Shown one piece after another: positions 17,615 through 61,688 of a DNA stretch of 64,000 bases. Numbering within the stretch: the first letter of the stretch is position 1; every line of letters starts with the position of its first letter. Under the pieces are notes generated by a model. It saw only the letters and a program-made list of their open reading frames with translations, ran no database searches and had not been told where the DNA came from. The DNA lies in contig WQXA01000001.1 in NCBI GenBank assembly GCA_009785095.1, positions 3,244 to 67,243 on the forward strand, written 5' to 3'. A program made the translations under genes and the position numbers. The DNA comes from Candidatus Saccharimonadota bacterium (lineage in GTDB: Bacteria; Patescibacteriota; Saccharimonadia; Saccharimonadales; Saccharimonadaceae).

Positions 17615-17645
17615 ATTGTAACACAATGGGGGGGGGTGCTGTCAA
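17615..17645 (-). promoter_or_regulatory. sigma70-like promoter TTGACA-19 nt-TACAAT with a C9 tract inside the spacer
   Basis: On the minus strand: TTGACA (17645..17640), a 19-nt spacer containing CCCCCCCCC, then TACAAT (17620..17615). Confidence 0.5.
17628..17636. repeat. homopolymer tract G9 (C9 on the gene strand)
   Basis: Counted directly. Confidence 0.95.
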
Positions 17646-35336: not shown

Positions 35337-38300
35337 TTATCGACGACGAGCCGTAAGCTTATCGTGATACTCTCGCGCATACCTAATCAGTTGCGGCGGA
35401 AGACCCACTTTCTCGGCAAAAGAAAGGGGATTTGATATTACTTTTTCACCATCAACAATAGTCCGCTCAATCTGATCGCCAGATTCGGTGAGGACAATAC
35501 CTTGCACGCCCAAATCTGAGGCTTCTTCTGCGAAATCCAAAAAACCGTCATGATGGGTTGTCACCACTAAACGATGGCCGCGCGCGGCATTAGCCGCTAA
35601 TGTTGCGGCTGCGAAAGCGGCCTGGTACTTCGGAGATGTTGAACTGCCAATTTCGTCGGCAAAAGTGATGGCTGTTCTTGCTCCGGAAATTATTCGATGG
35701 TGGTCAGCCCAAACATCAACCTCGTGTTGACCGGCACTAGCCTCAACGTCCATTTCTTGGGCGATCCTACTGATGTATGAAATCCGCTCAAAATAAGGTA
35801 GGTTTCCATAGCTGGCCGGTACGACCCCCATTTTCATAGCGAGTAAAATGGCGTTGGTGATGTGCCTCGTGCCATAGGTTTTGCCTGCTGAGTGCTCGCC
35901 GCTGAGGGTAACGCCAGCCTGATCGCTCCGGATGCTATAATCAAAAGGCTGGTGCCTACTGCCGTGCCCGATGTCTTTCACTGAGTCGAGCCGTACTTCG
36001 CCGGTATCATTGAATTTGGCCAGCGCGTACTCGCCGGACGAGACACGTTTAGCCAAATCACCAAGGTATAGCAATCTATCGATAGCCTCGGCTATCTCTC
36101 TCGGTTCTTCTTGCCAAAAAGGATTTTCCGGACGTTGTTTTTTAGTCAACGGTGAATAATCAGAATGCCAGGCATCTGTGCTATTCGAATCGTCGACCGT
36201 TTCACTAGGAGTCGCCGTGCGATTATTGACGAGGTTTTGTAAATGCAAGATACCTTGACGCATATGAACGGAGTCTATCTGATCGCGATGCTGTTCTAGG
36301 CGTTCGAGCGCATCCATTATAGTAGGCTCCGACTGCATGAGTTCAATCAATTTTCCAATACCCGAACCCATTTTAATCGATGTAGAGATCAGTTCCGAGT
36401 TCGGGTTCTCCTGCCGCTCGCTTTCTCCAGTAACGTAGGCATGTTGATTACTGTCAAAAGTTGTTTCTGGTTGTGCTAGAACTTCAAGGATCGGCTTTAG
36501 GTCATCTCTAAGCCAAAACTTTTCAAGGCTACTGCCTTTAAAATCAATTTTACGTATTGCTGTCGAAGCTAATCTCGCTGCCTGTCTCAATCTCTCCTGG
36601 ATCTTATCTGTGTGCTGTTTGTTGATACCCTTAAGAAAGTAATATTGGCGACGGTTCTGACTGTTGTCGTAAAGTTGCAATTCTTGCTCATGAGCTGATC
36701 GCAATTTGTCAATTTGAGAGCTGAGAAATGATAGGGAATCACGTAATTTAGTAAAGTCTCCGAAACCAAGTAGCTCCAACAGCTCTACATAGGCTAAGGC
36801 CTTCGCTGCGAGACTAATATCACGCACTATTGGATAGTATGATGCATCTCCATCGAGATTAAAATGACCATTTTTCGAAAGCGAGGGTGTTACCTCGTCC
36901 GTTATTTTATGACCAAAACCATGCTGAAAGTTAAACGCCCAGATAGGATTAAGCTGTTGTAGCAGAACCGATGGATCTTTATTTCCAACTATCTTCAAGA
37001 AAGTCTCAAGGTTGACACCGAGCAAATTGAGATCATCAACCAAATCATCCAGTTCTCCATAACCGGCCAGCACCTCGATCGTCCGCCGCCGTTCGATTAA
37101 TTCCCTAAACTCAACTGGGTCGCTATTACACAGCAACTGTCGCTGCTCCGAACTCATGCCACTCAGTAGATCAGAATCCTTGCTCAATGGTACATAGGCG
37201 GGGCTGTGTGGTGTCTCGGGGAACATATATGCTAGACCACCGTCGCGCTCCATCATCTCTTCGCGTTTCGTTTGGTCGTAACCACTTTCCGGAACAGCCG
37301 GATAGTCCGGCGTGTAGCTAATTTTGAGGCTGCCATCCAAATAGTCTTCCATTAGACCAGCATAGTCTTCACCGAGTCCTCTTGAGCGCACTACATCTAT
37401 AAAACCAGAATCAGCCACGCCTTCTACCATCTGATATGGGTTGTCAGGGTCGTTTGTAAAGCTATAAAGTCCTGCGTCTTTCAATTTTTTTAGCATGCTC
37501 GCAACATGCTCGTTATGGGTTGCTAAACACACTAATCCGCCGTTTTCCTGCACATAGCGAGCGAACGCCAAATTCAAGGCTGCTTGCCAAAGCGGCGACG
37601 TCGTGGACATCGCTTCATCGAGATAAAAAACAGGTTTCTTGCCTATGTGACGGAGCGCTTCTTTCCATCTACGAAACTCATTAACGAGTGCGCCATGGTT
37701 ACCTATGCCGCGAGAATTGCACCGGCCAAGCATAGTGAAGGACGTATGCAACTCAAATTCGTTTGGTTGTTCGGCCGGAACCCAACCAAGTGCTTGTCGT
37801 GCTATCCGCGCACCGAAATCACGCTCCATGGCGAATGTTTTACCCGATCCATTTGCAGCAACTAGGACAACTATTGAGTGCTCATTAAACAATCCTTTGC
37901 CAAGGGTTTGCTCACCTTTGGGCTTCTGAAATTTCCAAGCGCCGGAGATCTCCGAATCAGTATCGCCCGGGATTGCTGGATGCCATTCGTCCTCAGCTAT
38001 CATTGAGGCTAACGTTGTGACTACTACCAAATCTACCATTCGAGCGAGAACATTATCTGCCCAATTACTAGGATTGTGGTTAAAATGTCCGAAAGTATCT
38101 CCACCAGAGTAGTATCGATTATCAGGGCGACCATATCCAGGAAGCCACGATAGAAATCTATCGTAAGGGTAAGAACCAAATTGACATCTTGCTTGCTCGT
38201 CACTCATCCAGGTTCGAACTTGATCAACTGAATCTCGATTTAACAAATTTCTTATACAGTATTCTAGATACTTCATACTTACAGCACTTGGCTCAAAAGT

Positions 38301-38843
38301 TTCATCAATAGTGGTAAGCAGACTAGCTATTCGTCCCAGACTTCCAACGTTTGTTGCGATGTCATCAAGAACAATATTCATGGCCTCGTTCGTTCGGTGA
38401 TGCTCATACCCTAGGTTTGGTACATAAATTTCTGACTCTGTCTCTAAACCCATCACATACATTTCATATAATGAGCTGTTATTCCAATTAGAATCATCCC
38501 CTGAAGGCCAAAATGCAGAACCTAAAGCATCCGCCAGTGCCATTGCTCCCACTAGAGCCTTTCTTAACTCTGGTAGCTGTTCTGATTCGGCGAGCATGCG
38601 AAGTATCTCCCTACGCTGCTCGAGCACAGTTGTATCAGAAATCGGTCTTGATATAATGTCATCTGCTATGTAAGATAATCGACTCTCCGTAAATATAGAT
38701 ACGTTACCTTCCTCCTCGGATGGTTCAAACGGTCGATAATCAGATTCATGTTGACCAGTGTAAAATCTAGCTGGCAGGGCTTCAAGTTGATTCGGGGGGG
38801 GGGGCGGCGGTAGCAATAGCAATGTTCGTGATATTGGTCGCAT
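35337..38843 (-). CDS. MutS-family protein with two tandem core-plus-ATPase (domain III/V-like) modules; C11 tract at codons 12-15
   Basis: Module 1: AANGSGKT (~37836..37859), VFYLDEAMSTTSP, LATH. Module 2: GEHSAGKT (~35880..35903), FADEIGSSTSP, VTTHH. Each is preceded by a helical segment with a MutS-core-like ...I..RR.I..L motif. I saw no mismatch-binding domain I and no Smr domain. Confidence 0.6.
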   Translation of the reverse strand: MRPISRTLLLLPPPPPPNQLEALPARFYTGQHESDYRPFEPSEEEGNVSIFTESRLSYIADDIISRPISDTTVLEQRREILRMLAESEQLPELRKALVGAMALADALGSAFWPSGDDSNWNNSSLYEMYVMGLETESEIYVPNLGYEHHRTNEAMNIVLDDIATNVGSLGRIASLLTTIDETFEPSAVSMKYLEYCIRNLLNRDSVDQVRTWMSDEQARCQFGSYPYDRFLSWLPGYGRPDNRYYSGGDTFGHFNHNPSNWADNVLARMVDLVVVTTLASMIAEDEWHPAIPGDTDSEISGAWKFQKPKGEQTLGKGLFNEHSIVVLVAANGSGKTFAMERDFGARIARQALGWVPAEQPNEFELHTSFTMLGRCNSRGIGNHGALVNEFRRWKEALRHIGKKPVFYLDEAMSTTSPLWQAALNLAFARYVQENGGLVCLATHNEHVASMLKKLKDAGLYSFTNDPDNPYQMVEGVADSGFIDVVRSRGLGEDYAGLMEDYLDGSLKISYTPDYPAVPESGYDQTKREEMMERDGGLAYMFPETPHSPAYVPLSKDSDLLSGMSSEQRQLLCNSDPVEFRELIERRRTIEVLAGYGELDDLVDDLNLLGVNLETFLKIVGNKDPSVLLQQLNPIWAFNFQHGFGHKITDEVTPSLSKNGHFNLDGDASYYPIVRDISLAAKALAYVELLELLGFGDFTKLRDSLSFLSSQIDKLRSAHEQELQLYDNSQNRRQYYFLKGINKQHTDKIQERLRQAARLASTAIRKIDFKGSSLEKFWLRDDLKPILEVLAQPETTFDSNQHAYVTGESERQENPNSELISTSIKMGSGIGKLIELMQSEPTIMDALERLEQHRDQIDSVHMRQGILHLQNLVNNRTATPSETVDDSNSTDAWHSDYSPLTKKQRPENPFWQEEPREIAEAIDRLLYLGDLAKRVSSGEYALAKFNDTGEVRLDSVKDIGHGSRHQPFDYSIRSDQAGVTLSGEHSAGKTYGTRHITNAILLAMKMGVVPASYGNLPYFERISYISRIAQEMDVEASAGQHEVDVWADHHRIISGARTAITFADEIGSSTSPKYQAAFAAATLAANAARGHRLVVTTHHDGFLDFAEEASDLGVQGIVLTESGDQIERTIVDGEKVISNPLSFAEKVGLPPQLIRYAREYHDKLTARRR
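38794..38804. repeat. homopolymer tract G11 (C11 on the gene strand)
   Basis: Counted directly. Read as PPPP within LLLPPPPPPPNQ. Confidence 0.95.
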
Positions 38844-49650: not shown

Positions 49651-50624
49651 ATGAATACATCACCAAAGGATCCTACACAAAAACCACTAAAAGAGCACGA
49701 GCGGTTGTTAGCAGTTCCAGGAGGAACAAAGAGACTGACAAGTGGCTTAATTGTGCCACGGGGGGGGGGGCAGCGGCGCTAGAAGCTTTAGCTGTCGACA
49801 GACCCGATGAACCGACTTCCGAACAAGCCAATGAAGCTTGGCAAACTTGGCGCGAAAGATCGGAATATACCGCATTCAAAGACATTTTTGACGCCCTAGA
49901 AGGGCAACTTGAAAATTATGAAGTAGCCGGAAAATTGTTCAAACTCGATCTCTCTGTCTATGACGAAACTGCTGCCCGCACCGCTCTCAACGATGCCCTG
50001 AATCATATCACTATTACGCAGCTTAGATCTATGCGTGAAGCTGGTATGGATAGCGAACACCCATACGCTCTCATTGCCAATTTTGTGCCGACCAAGAAAT
50101 TTAGCCATTCTGAGCTAGAGACAGCGAATGCTAAGTTAAATCCTGATGATCACTTTGAAGCTCTCGACTATCGTGATCAGTATACTGAGGATCAACTAAA
50201 TGGTGATTACAGAACCAAATCAGGCCAAGAAGGCTTTGTGGTTGAGTTCATCCCAGTTGAGCCCAATATTAATGCCGCTAAACAGAAGGATCAGATCGAT
50301 CAACTTGATAGACTTAATAGTATTGAGGGCGCTAACTGGAGTGTGCCTGGCGACGCGTCTAGCATGATCTATCAACAGGTTCTGGCGGATAAAGGCTTGC
50401 TGACTGGCGATGACAATCCTAGTAAAACGTCTATTGTCAGATTAGATTTAGAGTCGAAGGCAGGGGATCCTGACAGTTACAGAAACCTAGCGTGGGATGA
50501 GCTAGTAGATATGTTTCGTCCGATTACGTACCGCGTTGACTACGGCAGGGCGTTCTTGGTCGGGGCGGGCGTCGACGTCGACAAGGACGTTTCGCGTGTC
50601 GCGATAAAGCCAAAATTTGATTAA
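49651..50624 (+). pseudogene. hypothetical protein (orphan) frameshifted at a G11 tract (phase-OFF or sequencing error)
   Basis: ATG 49651 reads MNTSPKDP...IVPRGGGQRR*, stopping 3 codons after the tract. The frame that ends at 50624 is open from 49647 through the tract, but has no ATG or GTG before TTG 49935. G9 or G12 fuses the two frames into a ~324-aa ORF. Confidence 0.7.
49760..49770. repeat. homopolymer tract G11
   Basis: Counted directly. Confidence 0.95.
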
Positions 50625-52986: not shown

Positions 52987-55875
52987 ATGGCTCAAAGGGG
53001 TAAGGTTTTAGGTGCGCGGCAGCGACCGAATAGCAACAAACTGAGGGTTGAATATAATTTTTCGACGGCGCAAAAGGATCCCTACGCAGAGGTCAAATGG
53101 GAAAAACGCGACGTTACCATGACCAATTGGCGCGACGGCAGTGTCTCGTTTGAGCAGAAGGGCGTCGAATTCCCGGACTTTTGGTCGCTAAATGCCACGC
53201 AAATCGTGACTAGCAAATATTTTCGCGGCCGAATCGGCACGCCGGCGCGCGAGAGCTCCCTTAAACAGCTGATCGATCGAGTGGTTAACAAATATGCTGC
53301 CCAAGGTAAAAAAGACGGCTATTTCGCTAGCGCCAAGGACGCCGAAGCCTTTGCTAGCGAGCTCAAATGGATGCTGCTGCATCAGGTTTTTTCCTTTAAT
53401 TCGCCGGTTTGGTTCAATGTCGGCACCGACGCGCCGCAACAGGTCAGCGCCTGTTTCATTCTCGGCGTCGAGGACAATATGGAGGCGATTCTCAATTGGT
53501 ACACCGAAGAGGGTAAGATTTTCAAGCGCGGCAGCGGTTCCGGCGTCAACCTCAGCCGGATTCGTGGTTCGCGCGAAGGATTAAGCACCGGCGGGCGAGC
53601 GAGCGGGCCGGTATCGTTCATGCGCGGCGCCGACGCTAGTGCGGGAACAATCGCCAGTGGTGGCGCAACTCGGCGCGCCGCCAAAATGGTGGTGCTCGAT
53701 GTCGACCACCCGGACGTCGAGGCCTTTATCGAGACCAAAGAGCGCGAGGAGGAGAAAATCCGGGCGCTCCGGGACGCTGGTTTTGACATGGATCTCGACG
53801 GGCGGGATATTTATTCTGTCCAGTACCAGAACGCCAACAACTCGGTGCGAGTGAGCGATGAATTTATGCGGGCGGTCGAGGCGGGAGCGCCGTTCGGTCT
53901 CAGGGCGCGCAAGGACGGCAGCATCGTCGAAACGGTCGACGCGCGCGAATTGTTTGGCAAAATGTCGCAGGCGGCCTGGGCGTGCGCCGACCCCGGGATT
54001 CAATACGACGGCGTGATTAATGCCTGGCACACCATTCCGAACGACGGCAAGATCACCGCCAGCAATCCTTGTTCTGAGTACATGTCGATCGACAACAGCT
54101 CGTGCAATTTGGCGTCGATCAACCTCTTGAAATTTCTAGACGAAGACGGTCAATTCGACGTCGACAAATTTATCGCGGCCGTCGAAGTAATTTTCACGGC
54201 CATGGATTTGTCGATCACTTTTGGCGATTTTCCGACCGATCGGATAACCGCCAACACGCGCAAATTCCGTCAATTAGGACTCGGCTACGCCAACCTCGGC
54301 GCGCTGCTCATGGCGATTGGTTTGCCGTACGATTCACCGGAGGGACAGGACGTAGCAGCCGCCATCACTAGCTTGATGACGGCGGCAGCCTATCGCCGCT
54401 CAGCCGAAATCGCGGCCGCGGTCGGCTCATACGAAGGCTACGCCAAAAACGCGGCGCCGCACACGGCGGTGATGCGAAAACACGCCGCCGTCTCGATGGC
54501 TAAAACTGACGATATCGTTGACCAAGATCTCCACACCAACGCCGAGGACATCATTTTCGCGGCCAATCGTGAGTGGGAGGACGGGATTAAATTGGGCGCG
54601 GAGCACGGGTGGCGCAACTCGCAGGCCTCGCTCCTGGCACCGACGGGCACGATTGGCTTTATGATGGACTGCGACACGACGGGGATCGAGCCGGACTTTT
54701 CCTTAGTCAAGTTCAAGAAATTAGTCGGCGGCGGTTCCATGCAAATTGTCAACCAAACCATCCCACGAGCTCTCGAAACTTTGGGCTACAAAGCCGACCA
54801 AGCCCAAAAAATTATCGAATATATCGCGGGAAACGGCAACGTAATTGGTGCGCCGGAACTGAAAATCGAGGATTACGCGGTGTTCGATTGCGCGGTCGGC
54901 GAGCGAGCGATCGAACCGATGGGACACATTCGCATGATGGCGGCGGTGCAGCCTTTCCTGTCCGGCGCGATTTCTAAAACCGTCAACATGCCAGAATCAG
55001 CCACCATCGAAGAAGTCCAAGAAATCTACCTGGAAGGCTGGAAAATGGGACTCAAAGCCATCGCCATTTATCGCGACAATTGCAAAGTCGGCCAACCGCT
55101 GTCCGATGGCAAGAAAAAAGAAACCGCGGGCAAAACTCCGACCGAGGCGGAAACTCCAATCGAGGAGCGCCACGCCGTGCGCCGCAAATTGCCCGACGTG
55201 CGACCGGCGCAAACCTACAAATTCGAGGTGGCGGGCGCCGAGGGTTATCTGATCGCTGGTTCGTATCCCGATAACGGCGTCGGTGAGATTTTTGTCAACG
55301 TTAGCAAACAAGGTTCGACTTTGGCGGGGCTGATGGATGCTTTTTCGGTGGCGATTTCGATTGGTTTGCAATACGGCGTACCTCTCGAAACTTATGTCAA
55401 GAAATACATCAACACGCGCTTTGACCCGGCCGGCATGACCAACGATCCTGATATTCGATTTGCCCAAAGTCCGATCGATTACATCTTCCGTCGTCTCGCG
55501 TTGGATTACTTGCCATTCGACACGCGCGCCAGTTACGGCATCTACACGACCGAAGAGCGTGTGCGGGCGATCGAGACGGGCGAGTACGCGCCGGCGCCAC
55601 TGGAATCTGATAAGAACTTGACCGACAGCTCCGGCAGCGACGAAGACGGCGTCGGAAAACTAGAGATGAAAGTCGACGACGCGCCGGAGCGCCTAGAAAA
55701 AGTCGGCGACCCGATCGAGGTAAAAATCGGCGAAGCGCCGCCACGTTCCACGGCCGAACTAGCCAATGTCGGCGAGAGCGACGCGCCGATTTGCATGAAT
55801 TGCGGCGTCAAAATGCGCCCAGCCGGCTCATGTCACATCTGTGAGTTGTGCGGCTCGACGAGCGGCTGTAGTTAA
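52987..55875 (+). CDS. nrdJ: class II (adenosylcobalamin-dependent) ribonucleotide reductase
   Basis: Single large chain with the SNPCSEY active-site loop and a C-terminal CxxC...CxxC tail (CMNCG...CHICELCG). No nrdB/nrdF partner is adjacent. Confidence 0.85.
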   Translation: MAQRGKVLGARQRPNSNKLRVEYNFSTAQKDPYAEVKWEKRDVTMTNWRDGSVSFEQKGVEFPDFWSLNATQIVTSKYFRGRIGTPARESSLKQLIDRVVNKYAAQGKKDGYFASAKDAEAFASELKWMLLHQVFSFNSPVWFNVGTDAPQQVSACFILGVEDNMEAILNWYTEEGKIFKRGSGSGVNLSRIRGSREGLSTGGRASGPVSFMRGADASAGTIASGGATRRAAKMVVLDVDHPDVEAFIETKEREEEKIRALRDAGFDMDLDGRDIYSVQYQNANNSVRVSDEFMRAVEAGAPFGLRARKDGSIVETVDARELFGKMSQAAWACADPGIQYDGVINAWHTIPNDGKITASNPCSEYMSIDNSSCNLASINLLKFLDEDGQFDVDKFIAAVEVIFTAMDLSITFGDFPTDRITANTRKFRQLGLGYANLGALLMAIGLPYDSPEGQDVAAAITSLMTAAAYRRSAEIAAAVGSYEGYAKNAAPHTAVMRKHAAVSMAKTDDIVDQDLHTNAEDIIFAANREWEDGIKLGAEHGWRNSQASLLAPTGTIGFMMDCDTTGIEPDFSLVKFKKLVGGGSMQIVNQTIPRALETLGYKADQAQKIIEYIAGNGNVIGAPELKIEDYAVFDCAVGERAIEPMGHIRMMAAVQPFLSGAISKTVNMPESATIEEVQEIYLEGWKMGLKAIAIYRDNCKVGQPLSDGKKKETAGKTPTEAETPIEERHAVRRKLPDVRPAQTYKFEVAGAEGYLIAGSYPDNGVGEIFVNVSKQGSTLAGLMDAFSVAISIGLQYGVPLETYVKKYINTRFDPAGMTNDPDIRFAQSPIDYIFRRLALDYLPFDTRASYGIYTTEERVRAIETGEYAPAPLESDKNLTDSSGSDEDGVGKLEMKVDDAPERLEKVGDPIEVKIGEAPPRSTAELANVGESDAPICMNCGVKMRPAGSCHICELCGSTSGCS

Positions 55876-55880
55876 AGTTT

Positions 55881-56313
55881 TGTCATCCTGAACCTAGCGC
55901 TCTGTCATCCTGAACTTGTTTCAGGATCCAAAATATTCTAAAATCAGAACGTGAAAAGCTACTATGTCTATATTCTGACCAATAGAACAAATCAGATCTT
56001 TTATATTGGCATAACGAACGATTTATGGCGACGCATCTATGAGCACAAAAACCACTTGGTTACTGGTTTCACCGACAAATATAACTTGGAGAAGTTGGTC
56101 TATTATGAGGAAACCAGCGATGTAAATTCTGCGATTCAGCGCGAGAAACAATTAAAGAATTGGCATCGACAATGGAAAATCAATCTAATTGAGCAAGCTA
56201 ACCCCAACTACAAAGATCTCGCGGAAGAGCTTTGATCATTTAAGATCCTGAAACAAGTTCAGGATGACAGGTAATTGAGATTAAGATGACAGATCATTGA
56301 TCTTGGGATGACA
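55881..56313. mobile_element. GIY-YIG nuclease cassette bounded by nested inverted repeats
   Basis: Perfect 26-bp inverted repeat: TGTCATCCTGAACTTGTTTCAGGATC (55903..55928) versus 56244..56269. Extra half-sites TGTCATCCTGAAC (55881..55893) and GATGACA (56285..56291 and 56307..56313). Each repeat also folds as an 8-bp hairpin. Confidence 0.7.
55951..56235 (+). CDS. GIY-YIG nuclease family protein (UPF0213-like, 94 aa)
   Basis: YYVYILTN...FYIGITNDLWRRIYEHK GIY-YIG motif. GTG start. Confidence 0.85.
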   Translation: MKSYYVYILTNRTNQIFYIGITNDLWRRIYEHKNHLVTGFTDKYNLEKLVYYEETSDVNSAIQREKQLKNWHRQWKINLIEQANPNYKDLAEEL

Positions 56314-56342: not shown

Positions 56343-56879
56343 ATGAAAAAAGCCAACCTGCTCTGGATTGACCTCGAGATGACGGGGCTTGATCCGGTGA
56401 AAGATCGAATTATTGAGGTCGGTGTCATCGCGACCGATTGGCGGTTGAATGAGGTGGCGCGTTACACGGCCGCCATCAAGGTAAATCCGAGGCTGGCCAA
56501 ACGTCGTATGACCGGTGATTTTTGGGAGAAAAACATGGCGGTGCGTGAGGCGCTGTTCGAGGCCAGCCAAACCAGCGGGCGAGTGGTGCGAACGGTTGAA
56601 AACGAGTTGATTGACTTTCTAAAGAAAAACTTTGACATGAAGCAACCGATCTATTTGGCCGGCAATTCGGTTTGGAACGATCGGCAATTCATCGAGCGAC
56701 AATGGTCGCGGCTAAACAATCTACTGCATTACCGCATGCTCGACGTAACGGCGTGGAAATTGGTGTTCGAAAATCATTTCAGAACCAAAATCAACAAGCC
56801 CGAAATCCACCGCGCTTTGGACGACATCGAGGGCTCGATCGCCGAATTGAAACTTTATATGAATAGAATTAAATTATAG
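56343..56879 (+). CDS. orn: oligoribonuclease
   Basis: LLWIDLEMTGLDP..DRIIEV, YRMLDVT, HRALDDI. Collinear with E. coli Orn. Confidence 0.9.
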   Translation: MKKANLLWIDLEMTGLDPVKDRIIEVGVIATDWRLNEVARYTAAIKVNPRLAKRRMTGDFWEKNMAVREALFEASQTSGRVVRTVENELIDFLKKNFDMKQPIYLAGNSVWNDRQFIERQWSRLNNLLHYRMLDVTAWKLVFENHFRTKINKPEIHRALDDIEGSIAELKLYMNRIKL

Positions 56880-56889
56880 GAGGAAAATC

Positions 56890-57235
56890 ATGAAAATTAT
56901 CAAACGAGGCGACATAAAACTCGAATCGGCTCACGGCGGCTCTGGCTCGCGCAAAGTCTTGATGCAGAACGTTAAAACTAGCGAAATCGAAGCCATGAGG
57001 GATGGTTTTTTACCGGGGGGGGGGGCAAATGTTTGACTGGCATCTGCACGACGGACTGACGGAAATTATGTACGTCTTGGCTGGCTCCGGCAAAGTGCAT
57101 GACGAGGACGGCCAGTATGATTACGCGTCGGGCGATCTCTTTACTTTTCCGGCGAACGAAAAACACAAGATCGTGAACACCGGCGATTCAGAAAGCCACA
57201 TGATTTTTGTTAGATTCAAAGAAAAGGCGATATGA
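56890..57235 (+). pseudogene. cupin-domain protein frameshifted at a G11 tract (phase-OFF or sequencing error)
   Basis: RBS AGGAGGA then ATG 56890 reads MKIIKRGD...DGFLPGGGANV*. The second frame (GGGQMFDWHLHDGLTEIMYVLAGSG...) carries the cupin core. G10 gives one 114-aa cupin ORF. Confidence 0.8.
57015..57025. repeat. homopolymer tract G11
   Basis: Counted directly. Confidence 0.95.
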
Positions 57236-57237
57236 TG

Positions 57238-57288
57238 CATCGAGAAATCGAAAAACTAAAAGTTTACCTAGAGCGGATCAAGCGATGA
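57238..57288 (+). pseudogene. displaced native 3' end of orn (HREIEKLKVYLERIKR*)
   Basis: Resembles the Orn C-terminus (functional copy IAELKLYMNRIKL*; E. coli IRESVAELAYYREHFIKL*). It uses GC-rich codons, and its TGA overlaps the ATG of the DHH gene as ATGA. Confidence 0.6.
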
Positions 57289-58211
57289 AAATCGTCTGTA
57301 CTTCCGATGCTTACGTTGACATCGATGGGCTGGCCTCGATGGTGGCTTACGTCGAGCTACTAAATAAAACCAACGAACCGGCCGCCGCGATGTCGGAAGC
57401 GCGGTTAAACGCTAGCATCCCGAGCGAGATGCGATCGTGGCCGTTCGATCTAAAAATGCCCGAGCCAAAATCTGATGATACTTTTATCCTGGTGGATATT
57501 TCAAATCCGACCTGGATACCGCCGTGGGTCGACGAGAATCGCATCGAGGCGGTGATCGATCATCACCCGGGCTATGAGGAATATTGGCGCGAGCGAATTG
57601 ATGGCGGCACACAGATCGAAATGATGGGCGCGGCCGTCACGATGATTTGGGAAAAATGGCGCGACAGCGGTCTTTTGGATCAGGTGAGCGAAACCTCGGC
57701 GCGATTGATCGCCTGTGCGATTCTGGATCAGACGCTCAATTTTCAGGCTAGCGTCACAACCGATCGCGATAGAACGGCGTACGATGATTGCCTGGGTAGG
57801 GCGAACTTTGACGGCGATCTGAAGGAATGGTATTTTTCGAGCGTGCAGGCGGACATCGAGCACGACCTCGAGAATGCTATCAAAAACGATACGAAATCCG
57901 ACTTTAAAATCCCCTCACTCGAACCGACAATAAAATGCGCGCAACTGGCCGTTTGGGACGGGAAAGATTTTTTGACGAAATACGGTCGCAAGATTGTGGA
58001 TGTCTTGGGCGATGATGAATATTGGTTGCTGAATTTGATCGATATTTCCGGCGGAAAAAGTCAATTTTTTACCAATGAAAGGATGACCGCCAAAGTCATA
58101 ACAGAATTAACCGGTGCCCAATTCGACGATGATGGCTTGCTCGCGGTGGCTGATCGTCCTTGGCTCAGAAAAGAAATCATAAAAGCAGGAATCGAACGTG
58201 CTAAATCATAA
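57285..58211 (+). CDS. DHH-family phosphoesterase (NrnA / family II pyrophosphatase-like)
   Basis: DIDG, LVDISN and VIDHHPG motifs (DHH motifs I-III). Start moved to ATG 57285. Confidence 0.6.
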   Translation: MKIVCTSDAYVDIDGLASMVAYVELLNKTNEPAAAMSEARLNASIPSEMRSWPFDLKMPEPKSDDTFILVDISNPTWIPPWVDENRIEAVIDHHPGYEEYWRERIDGGTQIEMMGAAVTMIWEKWRDSGLLDQVSETSARLIACAILDQTLNFQASVTTDRDRTAYDDCLGRANFDGDLKEWYFSSVQADIEHDLENAIKNDTKSDFKIPSLEPTIKCAQLAVWDGKDFLTKYGRKIVDVLGDDEYWLLNLIDISGGKSQFFTNERMTAKVITELTGAQFDDDGLLAVADRPWLRKEIIKAGIERAKS

Positions 58212-58521
58212 GGAGGTCGAGGAGTATGTTTTGTCGATGCCGAATGCGCGGCTAGATTTTCCGTTTGACGAAAAAACCGCCGTTTACAAGGCCTCCAATG
58301 GCAAAATGTTCGCGTTGATCGCCGAGGGATCGAAACCGCTACGAATGAGTTTGAAAATCGATCCCAATCTGGGCGAGCTGCTGCGCGAAAAATACGAGAG
58401 CGTGCTGCCGGGTTATCACCTCAATAAAAAACACTGGATCACCGTTATTTTGAGCGGGCAACTGAGCGACGATGAGGTGCGCGATTTGATCCGCCACAGT
58501 TTTGAATTGGTTAATGGCTAG
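58198..58521 (+). CDS. MmcQ/YjbR-family protein
   Basis: LDFPFDEKTAVYK...GYHLNKKHWITV pattern. About 107 aa. Confidence 0.65.
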   Translation: MLNHKEVEEYVLSMPNARLDFPFDEKTAVYKASNGKMFALIAEGSKPLRMSLKIDPNLGELLREKYESVLPGYHLNKKHWITVILSGQLSDDEVRDLIRHSFELVNG

Positions 58522-59406: not shown

Positions 59407-60993
59407 ATGACAGCTTTAACGGCAGGACAGGCACCTTTAACCCGAAGAGCGCTCAGAGAAGCGGAGAAGGTTCAAAAAAGAGAATCCTCGCTCTTTAAGA
59501 GGATGGGTAGAAAAATAGGAAAGCTGGCGACTGCTCTCGTTACTCCTTTTAGCGGCCGCAAAATGGAAAACTCTGAAGTGGAAAACCCCGATGAGCCACG
59601 CATTCCTTTTTCTTCGCCAGAAGACACAGTGGAACTTCCAGTAACTGCAGATGAAATTGTAGATGAGGGTGAAGGTGAAGGTGATGTAAGTGTAAGTGGA
59701 GAGCCAGAATCGGGCGAAGAAGTTATTAGTAGAGCCGAGAGGTTATCTCAGCGATATGAGAACAAGGCAGCAAAAGCGGGACTAAGAGCTGCTGATGAGA
59801 TTAGTCCGTTTAAAGCGCAATCTTTGCGGAGTAAACGAGATCGTCTTTTGTCGCGGGCGGAGAGAGCTAGAGCCGGAGAACGTTTCGGGGTCATTGGAGC
59901 GGTGGGCAGAAGTGCGATCAACAAACTCACCGAAGCCAGGCAAAATCGCCGGGAAAGGAAGGCAGACAGAGCTGCGTACCAGGAAGAAAGAGCTAGAAAG
60001 GAGTTCGAGATTACTAACATTGAAGCCGGACTTACAAAACTGCGACAGGAAAACTTTGATGACATTAACTCTGGAGCTGCGCAAGCCAACATCGATGAGC
60101 AAACGACGCTTCGATCGCAGCTAGGAGTTGCTAAACGAGAGTTAGGCACATTTGACGACGAGCATGAACATCTACAGCCAAGAACCCTCGGCGGCAGAAT
60201 GCTGGGTGTCGTGACGGGACTGCAGGGCTCAATACAACGAGCCGTTGAGGGATTCAAGTTTACTCCACCAGAGCAGATGGAGGATGAATCCGATGAGGAT
60301 TACAATGCAAGACTTGACGATGCTAAAAGCCTCATCACAATAAAACGTGTCGTGGGTGGTTTGGCAGCAGGCGCACTTTTGGTTGGTGGGGCGCTTGCTC
60401 TAGCTAAATTGAATCAGAGCGGCTATGACTCCACAGCTTTGGATATGGCGCCGGATGCTACTGCACTGCCGACAGGTAGCGGTAGTGGCAATGGCCTAGT
60501 TAACGATGCTATAAGGAGCGTGAATAAGGCAGTAGAAAGTGTGGCAGCAGACGTAAAGGAAACTGCCACGGGCGCTGCTTCAAAAGTCGGTCAGTTTGTC
60601 GGCGAACCGTTTTCAACCGGTTCCGGCAGCACTACTAGTGGTACTATCATCGACAACTCTGACCTTACTAATGCTTTACCAGGCAGCAGGAATAGCGGCG
60701 CGGCAGAGAATGTAATGGAGGCTGTCCAGCCTACGATTCCGGAAATCTCGATCACAGTTGGTCAGGGTGGCGGTTACGGTGATGCGCTAGTTAAATATAG
60801 ACCCGGAGCGACGATCAATTGGGACGCATGGAACAAGGCGACAGCGCCTGGCACGAAGCTTCATGGTTGGTTACTAGAGAACGGTGCGTATCCAAGGCCA
60901 GAAGGTGGCAACCTAGGTATCGCGGATCTCTCAGGAGAAGTACCTATCTCGGTTGTAGAAAAACTCGCAGAAATTCCGGATATATTCAAATAA
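59407..60993 (+). CDS. hypothetical protein (charged coiled-coil N-terminal half, one TM helix, Gly/Ser-rich C-terminal half)
   Basis: ORF with RBS GGAAAGGAAAA. No recognisable motif. Confidence 0.5.
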   Translation: MTALTAGQAPLTRRALREAEKVQKRESSLFKRMGRKIGKLATALVTPFSGRKMENSEVENPDEPRIPFSSPEDTVELPVTADEIVDEGEGEGDVSVSGEPESGEEVISRAERLSQRYENKAAKAGLRAADEISPFKAQSLRSKRDRLLSRAERARAGERFGVIGAVGRSAINKLTEARQNRRERKADRAAYQEERARKEFEITNIEAGLTKLRQENFDDINSGAAQANIDEQTTLRSQLGVAKRELGTFDDEHEHLQPRTLGGRMLGVVTGLQGSIQRAVEGFKFTPPEQMEDESDEDYNARLDDAKSLITIKRVVGGLAAGALLVGGALALAKLNQSGYDSTALDMAPDATALPTGSGSGNGLVNDAIRSVNKAVESVAADVKETATGAASKVGQFVGEPFSTGSGSTTSGTIIDNSDLTNALPGSRNSGAAENVMEAVQPTIPEISITVGQGGGYGDALVKYRPGATINWDAWNKATAPGTKLHGWLLENGAYPRPEGGNLGIADLSGEVPISVVEKLAEIPDIFK

Positions 60994-61010
60994 ACAGAAA
61001 GGAAAAAGAA

Positions 61011-61688
61011 ATGGCGGGAGATCTTGTAAGAGGAGGGAACGGCAGAAAAGCGGTAGGTCGCCCAAGCGCCGCTCCAAGTTTACCTAGATATGTAGGAGGA
61101 GGTTATCGCACTCAGCCACGGAAACGATCAGTTTTCGATAGGATGTTTGCTCCCCTAGATAGGTTGGGCAATAAAGGAAGTGGGCTCCCTCTCGAAGAGC
61201 TTTCATTGGCAGAAAGAGCAGCAAGGGGGCTGGAATCAACGACAGCTGCTGGTAATAGGCAGAATACACCGACTACCGTGGATGAAGCTCTACAATTAGT
61301 TATCCGGAAAGCCAAAGAAACCCCTGGCTATAAAGATATTATCGAAGCGGATGTACTTGCTGCGACAGAAGTCGTAAAATCAGCGATCGTCCAACGATTA
61401 ATGAAAGCAAGAAAAGAAGCGAAGGGCGGTACATCGGGGTATACAGATGGTCGACTTCTTAAGCACTACCAGGTAGAAGCGGCTAGTGCTAATGCGACTA
61501 CCGAATCCAGTAGAAGAGGGATACGACTTGGTGAGAGAGCCATTGTATTAGATGCCCTTTTGGGTGCAGCTGTCGAACTTGGGGATGCGCCTGCTGACGT
61601 AGCGAAGAAAGATCGAAATCTTCCCAAGAGCTGGTTTAGAGGTATCGACTTTAGTTCGATCACGACTCAAATCAGGGAGAAAAAATAA
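61011..61688 (+). CDS. hypothetical protein
   Basis: ATG 61011 follows AAAGGAAAAAG. The upstream part of ORF 60819..61688 overlaps the preceding gene. Confidence 0.45.
   Translation: MAGDLVRGGNGRKAVGRPSAAPSLPRYVGGGYRTQPRKRSVFDRMFAPLDRLGNKGSGLPLEELSLAERAARGLESTTAAGNRQNTPTTVDEALQLVIRKAKETPGYKDIIEADVLAATEVVKSAIVQRLMKARKEAKGGTSGYTDGRLLKHYQVEAASANATTESSRRGIRLGERAIVLDALLGAAVELGDAPADVAKKDRNLPKSWFRGIDFSSITTQIREKK

Follow-up and report, generated by a model that had tools for sequence, protein, structure and literature searches.

When e14 or phage 21 enters the icd gene of Escherichia coli, the incoming DNA supplies a replacement 3′ end, and a 163-bp pseudo-icd′ is left behind (PMC6379469). Displaced 3′ ends have also been described for the effector-immunity arrays of the Vibrio cholerae type VI secretion system (T6SS) and for the orphan C-terminal arrays of Rhs and contact-dependent inhibition (CDI) systems, where homology-facilitated illegitimate recombination (HFIR) is the published model of the displacement (PMC5361080). 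Here, we describe what is probably a small insertion of a related kind. It lies in a 64,000-nucleotide stretch of a Candidatus Saccharimonadota bacterium (GenBank assembly GCA_009785095.1, contig WQXA01000001.1, positions 3,244 to 67,243), which we call the window. In the window a gene for a small cupin protein sits between orn, the gene for oligoribonuclease, and a gene for a DHH-family phosphoesterase. Our results suggest that the cupin gene is a derived insertion that imported a substitute tail for Orn, and that the native Orn tail was left stranded between the cupin and DHH genes. We give this reading a probability of about 0.7.

The insert is approximately 0.41 kb long, occurs in the window's lineage only and entered orn roughly 18 codons ahead of the stop (Table 1). 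It brings a full replacement Orn tail, a strong AGGAGG Shine-Dalgarno sequence and a single gene, the cupin. Because the replacement tail comes with the insert, orn stays full-length. Downstream of the cupin gene, positions 57238–57288 encode HREIEKLKVYLERIKR followed by a stop, with two in-frame ATG codons ahead of it (57232 and 57235). The second ATG shares its A with the TGA of the cupin gene (57233–57235), giving TGATG, and the TGA of this short open reading frame (ORF) forms ATGA with the ATG of the DHH gene at 57285. All these elements, together with a run of 11 G in the cupin gene, are found where the initial annotation of this DNA had placed them.

The short ORF had been proposed to be homologous to the Orn C-terminus, and this is well borne out. 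We scored all six-frame peptides of the window with a position-specific scoring matrix (PSSM) of 13 columns, made from the tails of 93 Orn homologues with the window's own Orn left out. The remnant reaches 23.5 bits; apart from it and the working tail of orn, none of the remaining 79,284 peptides exceeds 11.9 bits. Hence, the remnant is an Orn tail and not a chance similarity. Only the working tail of orn ranks above the remnant, with 26.8 bits. At the DNA level, the orn 3′ ends of relatives can be aligned with the window from about 57229–57232 through the DHH start with small indels, and with a net shift of about 4 nt the alignment reaches the D-D-I-E codons (GAT GAT ATC GAG). Since the alignment extends as far as 57229–57232, the TGA of the cupin gene and the two ATG codons may themselves be native orn sequence read out of frame.

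The remnant matches orthologous Orn tails at 9–10 of 13 positions. Three residues that are invariant in Orn, G164, S165 and E168, have become R, E and K, which is consistent with a release from protein-level selection. The DHH gene takes its start context from the final ~20 nt of the native orn tail. In the 90 other loci that we fetched, nothing downstream of orn matches an Orn tail a second time. The locus had also been counted as the third case in the window of the same insertion logic; we can find one. We looked behind every ORF for a duplicated copy of its C-terminal tail (BLOSUM62 score of at least 28), and this returned orn and, beyond it, nothing other than noise outside coding frames.

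The direction of the change can be read from related genomes. Four lineages (L004, L005, L006/L007 and L008/L009) share the gene order RNR-orn-DHH-yjbR, where RNR is a ribonucleotide reductase, followed by a minus-strand gene of ~200 aa and dnaG. Their Orn proteins are 64–72% identical to that of the window, orn and DHH overlap by 4 nt, DHH and yjbR overlap by 14 nt, and both the cupin gene and a GIY-YIG gene found in the window are absent. Their Orn proteins end in Y-L-x-(R/K)-(I/V)-K-R and a stop, with the codons AAG/AAA CGA/CGG TGA aaa, and the remnant junction in the window (ATC AAG CGA TGA aaatcgtctg) matches this orn/DHH junction. Four lineages thus have the orn-DHH junction without a cupin, which makes the cupin insertion the derived state; at orthologous loci the cupin is not ancestral.

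The ancestral operon of this sub-clade is therefore RNR-orn-DHH-yjbR, with orn and DHH joined by ATGA. The initial annotation had taken this coupling to be ancestral and the cupin to be a later arrival, and we agree for the sub-clade but not beyond it. Across 80 species-representative Saccharibacteria genomes, yjbR almost always follows orn directly (about 70 other loci are coupled in this way). The deeper state is therefore orn-yjbR, and the DHH gene, which is limited to a sub-clade from termite guts, must have entered this junction as an earlier insert.

The closest Orn relatives, L001/L011 and L002/L003, have no DHH gene (the nearest relative shares 77% Orn identity). In L002 (779–860), the sequence after the orn-tail AAGAAAT aligns to the last ~40 nt of DHH, and this leftover has become part of the YjbR reading frame, which it extends at the N-terminus. 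L002 must hence have lost DHH by a deletion between two AAGAAAT repeats. L001 (6525–6540) carries a different, nearly exact DHH deletion. The absence of DHH in both is a secondary loss through two different deletions. One could also argue for the reverse polarity, in which the working tail is native and the DHH gene was re-imported together with the remnant. We considered it because L001 and L002 have the closest orn, no DHH and tails that resemble the working tail. We rejected it as less parsimonious, since the loss of DHH in L002 is explained by the AAGAAAT deletion, and the position and overlaps of DHH are identical in the window and the four lineages.

Other Saccharibacteria have gained genes at the same place. 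Between orn and yjbR we found a membrane protein (L012), an Ldh-like and a kinase-like protein (L017), a 176-aa protein (L030), a protein of ~400 aa (L040 and L073) and a HAD-like hydrolase (L088); L018 also has an insert. These inserts consist of one or two genes, all in operon orientation. The junction downstream of orn is a recurrent site of gene gain, and the duplication of the tail is unique to the window.

By all signs in its sequence, the Orn protein with the substitute tail is complete. It scores 140.7 bits against NCBIfam NF003765, above the equivalog cutoff of 106, and matches Pfam RNase_T with E = 1.5e-17. All DEDDh residues are there: D10 and E12 in WIDLEMTG, D113, and H156 and D161 in HRALDD. 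D113, H156 and D161 are invariant in an alignment of 20 sequences. The alignment to homologues in the PDB reaches residue ~176, that is, the C-terminal helix is full-length, and its 178 aa compare with 177–178 aa in relatives.

The last codons of orn are GAA TTG AAA CTT TAT ATG AAT AGA ATT AAA TTA TAG. A contrast between these AT-rich codons and a GC-rich remnant had been suggested, and it holds on one side. The working tail has a GC content of 13% and a GC content at third codon positions (GC3) of 0.10, against 0.67 in the body of orn. The remnant, at 38% GC and a GC3 of 0.46, is average or below average for the genome (50.6% GC) and is not GC-rich.

Table 1. Features of the orn-DHH region in the window (positions count from the first nucleotide of the window).
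Feature	Coordinates	Strand	Remarks
Class II RNR	52987–55875	+	
GIY-YIG gene, 94 aa	55951–56235	+	
orn (oligoribonuclease), 178 aa, intact	56343–56879	+	Pfam RNase_T, NCBIfam NF003765
Left short direct repeat, CATCGAGGGCTCGA	56825–56838	+	Within orn codons D161-I162-E163-G-S; candidate crossover/microhomology site
Working (probably substitute) Orn tail, IAELKLYMNRIKL and TAG	56838–56879	+	Very AT-rich from 56846 on
AGGAGG Shine-Dalgarno of cupin gene	56878–56883	+	Overlaps orn TAG; ATG (56890) 6 nt on
Cupin_2 gene, frameshifted	56890–57235	+	Frame A 56890–57036, frame B 57029–57235
G11 homopolymer (putative OFF state)	57015–57025	+	Codes P-G-G-G loop just ahead of cupin motif 1
Probable displaced native Orn tail, ORF of 17–18 codons, (M)MHREIEKLKVYLERIKR and stop	57232/57235–57288	+	PSSM, DNA alignment
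Right short direct repeat, CATCGAGAAATCGA	57238–57251	+	
DHH-family phosphoesterase, 308 aa	57285–58211	+	Pfam DHH, 33.7 bits
yjbR, GTG start	58198–58521	+	Pfam YjbR, 94.9 bits; 14-nt overlap with DHH end

How could the insert have arrived? The two tails share 22 of 42 nt (52%) and are as diverged as orthologues from different species, a pattern that would fit a recently released native copy next to an imported, diverged working copy. An imported tail is favored because the tails differ this much while the unselected remnant has barely decayed. The working tail is most similar to the native tail of L002, IAELKLYINRIKK, with 11 of 13 matches, and a related donor is therefore likely. The donor may have been another Saccharibacterium in which the cupin gene lay directly downstream of orn, so that tail and cupin came together; we consider the odds of this to be about even. 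Saccharibacteria are naturally competent (PMC10633639), and the DNA would have been taken up by natural transformation. Recombination would have been anchored in the conserved orn block HRALDDIEGS, and the right-hand joint would have formed illegitimately at or near CATCGAG, as in HFIR. A repeat search shows a pair of direct repeats, 413 nt apart, on either side of the insert, with 11 of 14 positions identical and the first seven (CATCGAG) perfect.

The odd arrangement of two tails can also be understood from the constraints at the junction. In all relatives, the initiation region of DHH lies inside the last orn codons. An insertion at the ATGA itself would sacrifice one or the other, the C-terminus of Orn or the initiation region of DHH, which would account for a substitute end combined with a retained remnant. 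Selection would spare only insertions that preserve the Orn C-terminus together with the start context of DHH.

Several observations weigh against this account. First, we did not find a donor in which cupin and orn are adjacent: a protein search returned a single close homologue, P0241, in an unrelated operon, and a scan of metagenomes for the cupin returned the P0241 locus (L010) and relatives of 37–45% identity, with no orn nearby. Second, we detected no recombination tract or mosaic boundary within orn, and gene-by-gene identities among relatives are star-like. Discordance between the phylogenies of orn and its flanking genes, a candidate line of evidence for recombination, was for this reason uninformative. 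Third, the composition of the working tail is not diagnostic of a foreign origin, because the native tail of DHH, ahead of the coupled yjbR start, is equally AT-rich (GC3 0.1). The orn gene is among 4 of 45 genes with a tail GC3 of at most 0.2, the orn tails of relatives span 28–47% GC, and we rejected AT-richness as proof of a foreign tail. Fourth, we estimate that a repeat like CATCGAG arises by chance in this neighborhood with p ~0.02–0.05, and reconciling it with the native sequence requires an extra indel of net 4 nt. Fifth, an RNA structure that gates the start of the DHH or cupin gene is not supported (z = +0.94 for 57170–57330 and −0.38), and a difference between G10 and G11 at the cupin tract, described below, could be a homopolymer assembly error.

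The strongest competitor to an imported tail is a duplication in place. Capture of the cupin would have been accompanied by a duplication of about 55 nt of the orn 3′ end, for example through a staggered break, template switching or replication slippage. The copies would then have diverged, with selection acting on the protein encoded by the upstream copy and only the DHH start limiting change in the downstream copy. Both tails indeed look genuine for the clade. When the final four codons (those that overlap the DHH start) are left aside, they are about equally similar to the tail of L004 (14 of 24 and 12 of 24 nt), and the long private branch of the window's lineage, reflected in the 77% Orn identity to its nearest relative, would have left time for divergence. 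This scenario has to explain why two copies made in the same genome now resemble orthologues of different species. It also has to explain why the unconstrained remnant keeps an open frame and most of its typical residues, which a long neutral history should have erased. We therefore think a duplication in place is unlikely.

Site-specific integration at CATCGAG is less probable still. Here, the inserted element would have carried its attP in a copy of the orn 3′ end, like e14 and phage 21 at icd. Either it would later have lost everything except the cupin, or a recombinase from another locus would have acted on it in trans. In layout, the region corresponds exactly to attL and attR with a substitute 3′ end (PMC6379469), and the short direct repeat is present at both ends. 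However, the insert holds the cupin ORF only, and neither it nor the several kilobases around it contain a recombinase. A repeat search and folding revealed no attC-like hairpin and no terminal inverted repeat at the borders of the insert or at the 3′ end of the cupin gene. If orn were a recurrent att site, one would also expect orn-tail remnants elsewhere, and the 90 other loci show no such sign. Borders of the integron type or of the kind seen in miniature inverted-repeat transposable elements (MITEs) were likewise sought around the cupin and not found; the only inverted repeats, with the core TGTCATCCTGAAC, belong to the GIY-YIG gene.

It is very improbable that the structure is an artifact, either as an assembly chimera or, for the frameshift, as a miscalled homopolymer in an intact gene. 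An independent assembly of the same strain (L091, ERZ27264051; MEGAHIT, from another sample in the European Nucleotide Archive, ENA) contains the same insertion. There the tract is G10, and an intact cupin of 114 aa is called. Over 16.7 kb, the window and L091 are 99.97% identical, with two gaps, both at G tracts, and two single-nucleotide polymorphisms (SNPs). Two Logan contigs also cover the region from the tract to yjbR. As the insertion is present in two independent assemblies and in the Logan contigs, it is not a chimera. In favor of a miscall, the G9, G10 and C9 tracts agree with ERZ27264051 while none of the three G11 tracts does, which could be assembler behavior on the longest tracts. 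On the other side, the Logan contig L092 has G11 independently and starts exactly at CC followed by G11; a break exactly at the tract is what one expects from real heterogeneity. Furthermore, the distribution of tract lengths in the window, with 17 runs of G5, none of G6–8 and nine of G9–11, is not something that sequencing error can produce.

Finally, it is hardly credible that cupin and duplicated tail are ancestral to the sub-clade and were lost by recombination between the tail copies: although flanking direct repeats can delete a gene precisely, and L002 shows a short-repeat deletion at this very locus (AAGAAAT), at least four independent precise losses (L004, L005, L006 and L008, plus the L001 and L002 lineages) would stand against one gain, and at 52% identity the repeats are too diverged for efficient homologous deletion.

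In the frameshifted cupin gene of the window, frame A stops at 57034–57036, and frame B continues to the TGA ahead of the remnant. A tract of G10 would restore a Cupin_2 protein of 114 aa, and the repaired protein scores 58.7 bits in Pfam (cutoff 27.2). The cupin motif H-x-H...E...H is readable in the sequence. An AlphaFold2 model (predicted local distance difference test, pLDDT, 70) matches small monocupins such as 3cew and 1o4t in Foldseek, which returned only generic monocupins of unknown or varied function. By its motif, the protein appears to be a generic metal-site monocupin. Its close homologue P0241 (75% identity) lies on L010 in an ABC/Zn-ribbon/cupin/NUDIX/NUDIX/HD/IMPase-like operon, and homology at the DNA level is limited to 56884–57213. 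In both places, the genes around the cupin include nucleotide and phosphoester hydrolases, and the protein may therefore act in nucleotide salvage. P0241 has PAGA (GCC GGC GCG) where the window has PGGG(Q), and the G tract must therefore have arisen in the window's lineage.

The tract is one of ten G or C tracts of 9–11 nt in the 64 kb, at 17628, 19830, 20574, 21121, 23467, 24712, 38794, 43631 (C), 49760 and 57015. The nine G tracts comprise four G9, two G10 and three G11, so that the spectrum of G runs is bimodal. Most tracts sit in the 5′ parts of small hypothetical ORFs. Seven tracts (G9, G10 or C9) are identical in all assemblies, and the three G11 tracts are not. The two gaps relative to L091 correspond to G11 versus G10 at 57015 and G11 versus G9 at 49760; the third G11 tract (38794–38804) is G10 in the same independent assembly (L102). 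These differences change reading frames. The ORF at 49651–50624 encodes 323 aa when intact with G9 and 229 aa in the window, and the 5′ end of a minus-strand ORF (35337–38843) gives 1168 aa in the window and 1086 aa as called in the other assembly.

Tracts of G9 also occur in the loci of termite-gut relatives (L004, L008/L009 and L016), and there are none in ~600 kb of other Saccharibacteria. To us, the tracts look like contingency-type simple sequence repeat (SSR) loci that would mediate phase variation. In the literature we searched, we found no description of SSR phase variation in Saccharibacteria or Patescibacteria.

The two SNPs relative to L091 (~57000 and ~57011) lie at most 25 nt upstream of the cupin tract. 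One changes AGG to ACG (R to T, as in P0241), the other TTA to CTA. They could be either haplotypes linked to the tract or sequencing errors next to a homopolymer.

On paper, translation would run in a chain from orn through the cupin with its own Shine-Dalgarno sequence to the remnant ORF, DHH and yjbR. With the tract in the OFF state, ribosomes would stop at 57036, about 200 nt ahead of the remnant ORF, and we speculate that coupled translation of DHH and yjbR would fall. Weak promoter-like hexamers in both AT-rich borders could give independent transcription. Taken furthest, the termite-gut lineage would run poly-G contingency loci, one of them wired into a coupled nucleotide-salvage operon, where G10/G11 switches the cupin and modulates DHH and YjbR through the remnant and its ATGA relay. 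We regard this extended scenario as doubtful.

The DHH protein had been labeled NrnA-like, a label we do not retain. Pfam finds the N-terminal DHH domain only, with no match for a DHHA1 domain. In NCBIfam, the closest family is that of manganese-dependent family II pyrophosphatases, matched over the whole length but weakly (51 bits, cutoff 283), and there is no sequence match in the PDB. Both Orn and the DHH protein of the window are 100% identical to NCBI entries of Candidatus Saccharibacteria. Orthologues with 64–70% identity and a conserved N-terminus, MK(I/N)VC, occupy the same position in L004–L009. The N-terminus of YjbR, HKEVEEYVLSMP, is conserved between the window and L001.

All genes from RNR to yjbR are on the plus strand. 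Within ~5 kb of the insert lie RNR, the GIY-YIG gene, orn, DHH, YjbR, hypothetical genes and DnaG. The GIY-YIG gene is flanked by imperfect inverted repeats of 68 nt (55874–55941 and 56231–56298, 74% complementary), and it is absent from relatives, which have a gap of only ~20–35 nt between RNR and orn. Gene and repeats together look like a small mobile element. On a metagenome contig of 39% GC (L095, 3023–4339), homologues of the GIY-YIG gene (54% identity) and of the cupin gene (45% identity) are separated by ~700 nt, perhaps by coincidence. Further downstream, 59407–61688 holds two ORFs without a Pfam match (528 aa and ~225 aa), between a minus-strand gene of ~220 aa and dnaG. They are missing in L002, L004 and L008, which points to a further lineage-specific insertion. 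In the closest relative, L001, positions 1417–2767 (~3 kb upstream of orn) hold a pair resembling a diversity-generating retroelement (DGR), made up of bAvd and a reverse transcriptase, and a VWA-domain gene comes next.

If we are right about the insertion, the locus is a legible footprint of how a streamlined genome of the Candidate Phyla Radiation (CPR) adds a gene inside an operon of overlapping genes without breaking either neighbor. The enzyme ahead of the insert obtains a new C-terminus, and the old one, now stranded, still holds the start context of the gene behind it. Because the junction has taken up different inserts in many Saccharibacteria, the orn locus should be a useful model for gene gain within operons of naturally competent epibionts. 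The length differences at all three G11 tracts and the bimodal spectrum in turn suggest SSR phase variation in Saccharibacteria. Should the reading as contingency loci be true, this lineage would provide the first described case of SSR phase variation in the CPR.

The G tracts resemble the SSR contingency genes of Campylobacter, Helicobacter, Neisseria and Haemophilus in several respects. Poly-G tracts of 9–11 nt lie in the 5′ part of ORFs, length differences between populations switch the frame, and the spectrum of tract lengths is bimodal. In contrast to those genes, the tract described here is known from assemblies and lies in a cytoplasmic-looking cupin in a housekeeping operon, not in a surface or restriction-modification gene.

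Like an integron cassette, the insert is a single promoterless ORF in operon orientation at a fixed junction, but there is no attC hairpin and no integrase or attI nearby. A duplicated end of the target gene is not a feature of integrons. The arrays attributed to HFIR offer another comparison. In them, and probably here too, a conserved upstream gene body serves as the anchor, a new 3′ end enters together with cargo and the old end is pushed downstream. In the arrays, however, the new 3′ end is a different toxin domain and serves diversification, whereas here a homologous tail takes over the function of the old one, and the gene that came along encodes an unrelated accessory enzyme.

The similarity to e14 at icd lies in a target gene that is kept functional and in a displaced native 3′ end that persists at the far end of the insert, which here results in two Orn tails. 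It differs in that the insert measures 0.41 kb, carries one cargo gene, has no integrase and sits in a CPR host, and in that the displaced end of 17–18 codons still provides the start context (ATGA) of the next gene. The insertion hence belongs with the known substitute-3′-end insertions, and what sets it apart is that it is tiny, integrase-less and single-gene, has a G tract of variable length in its cargo gene and lies in a coupled CPR operon.

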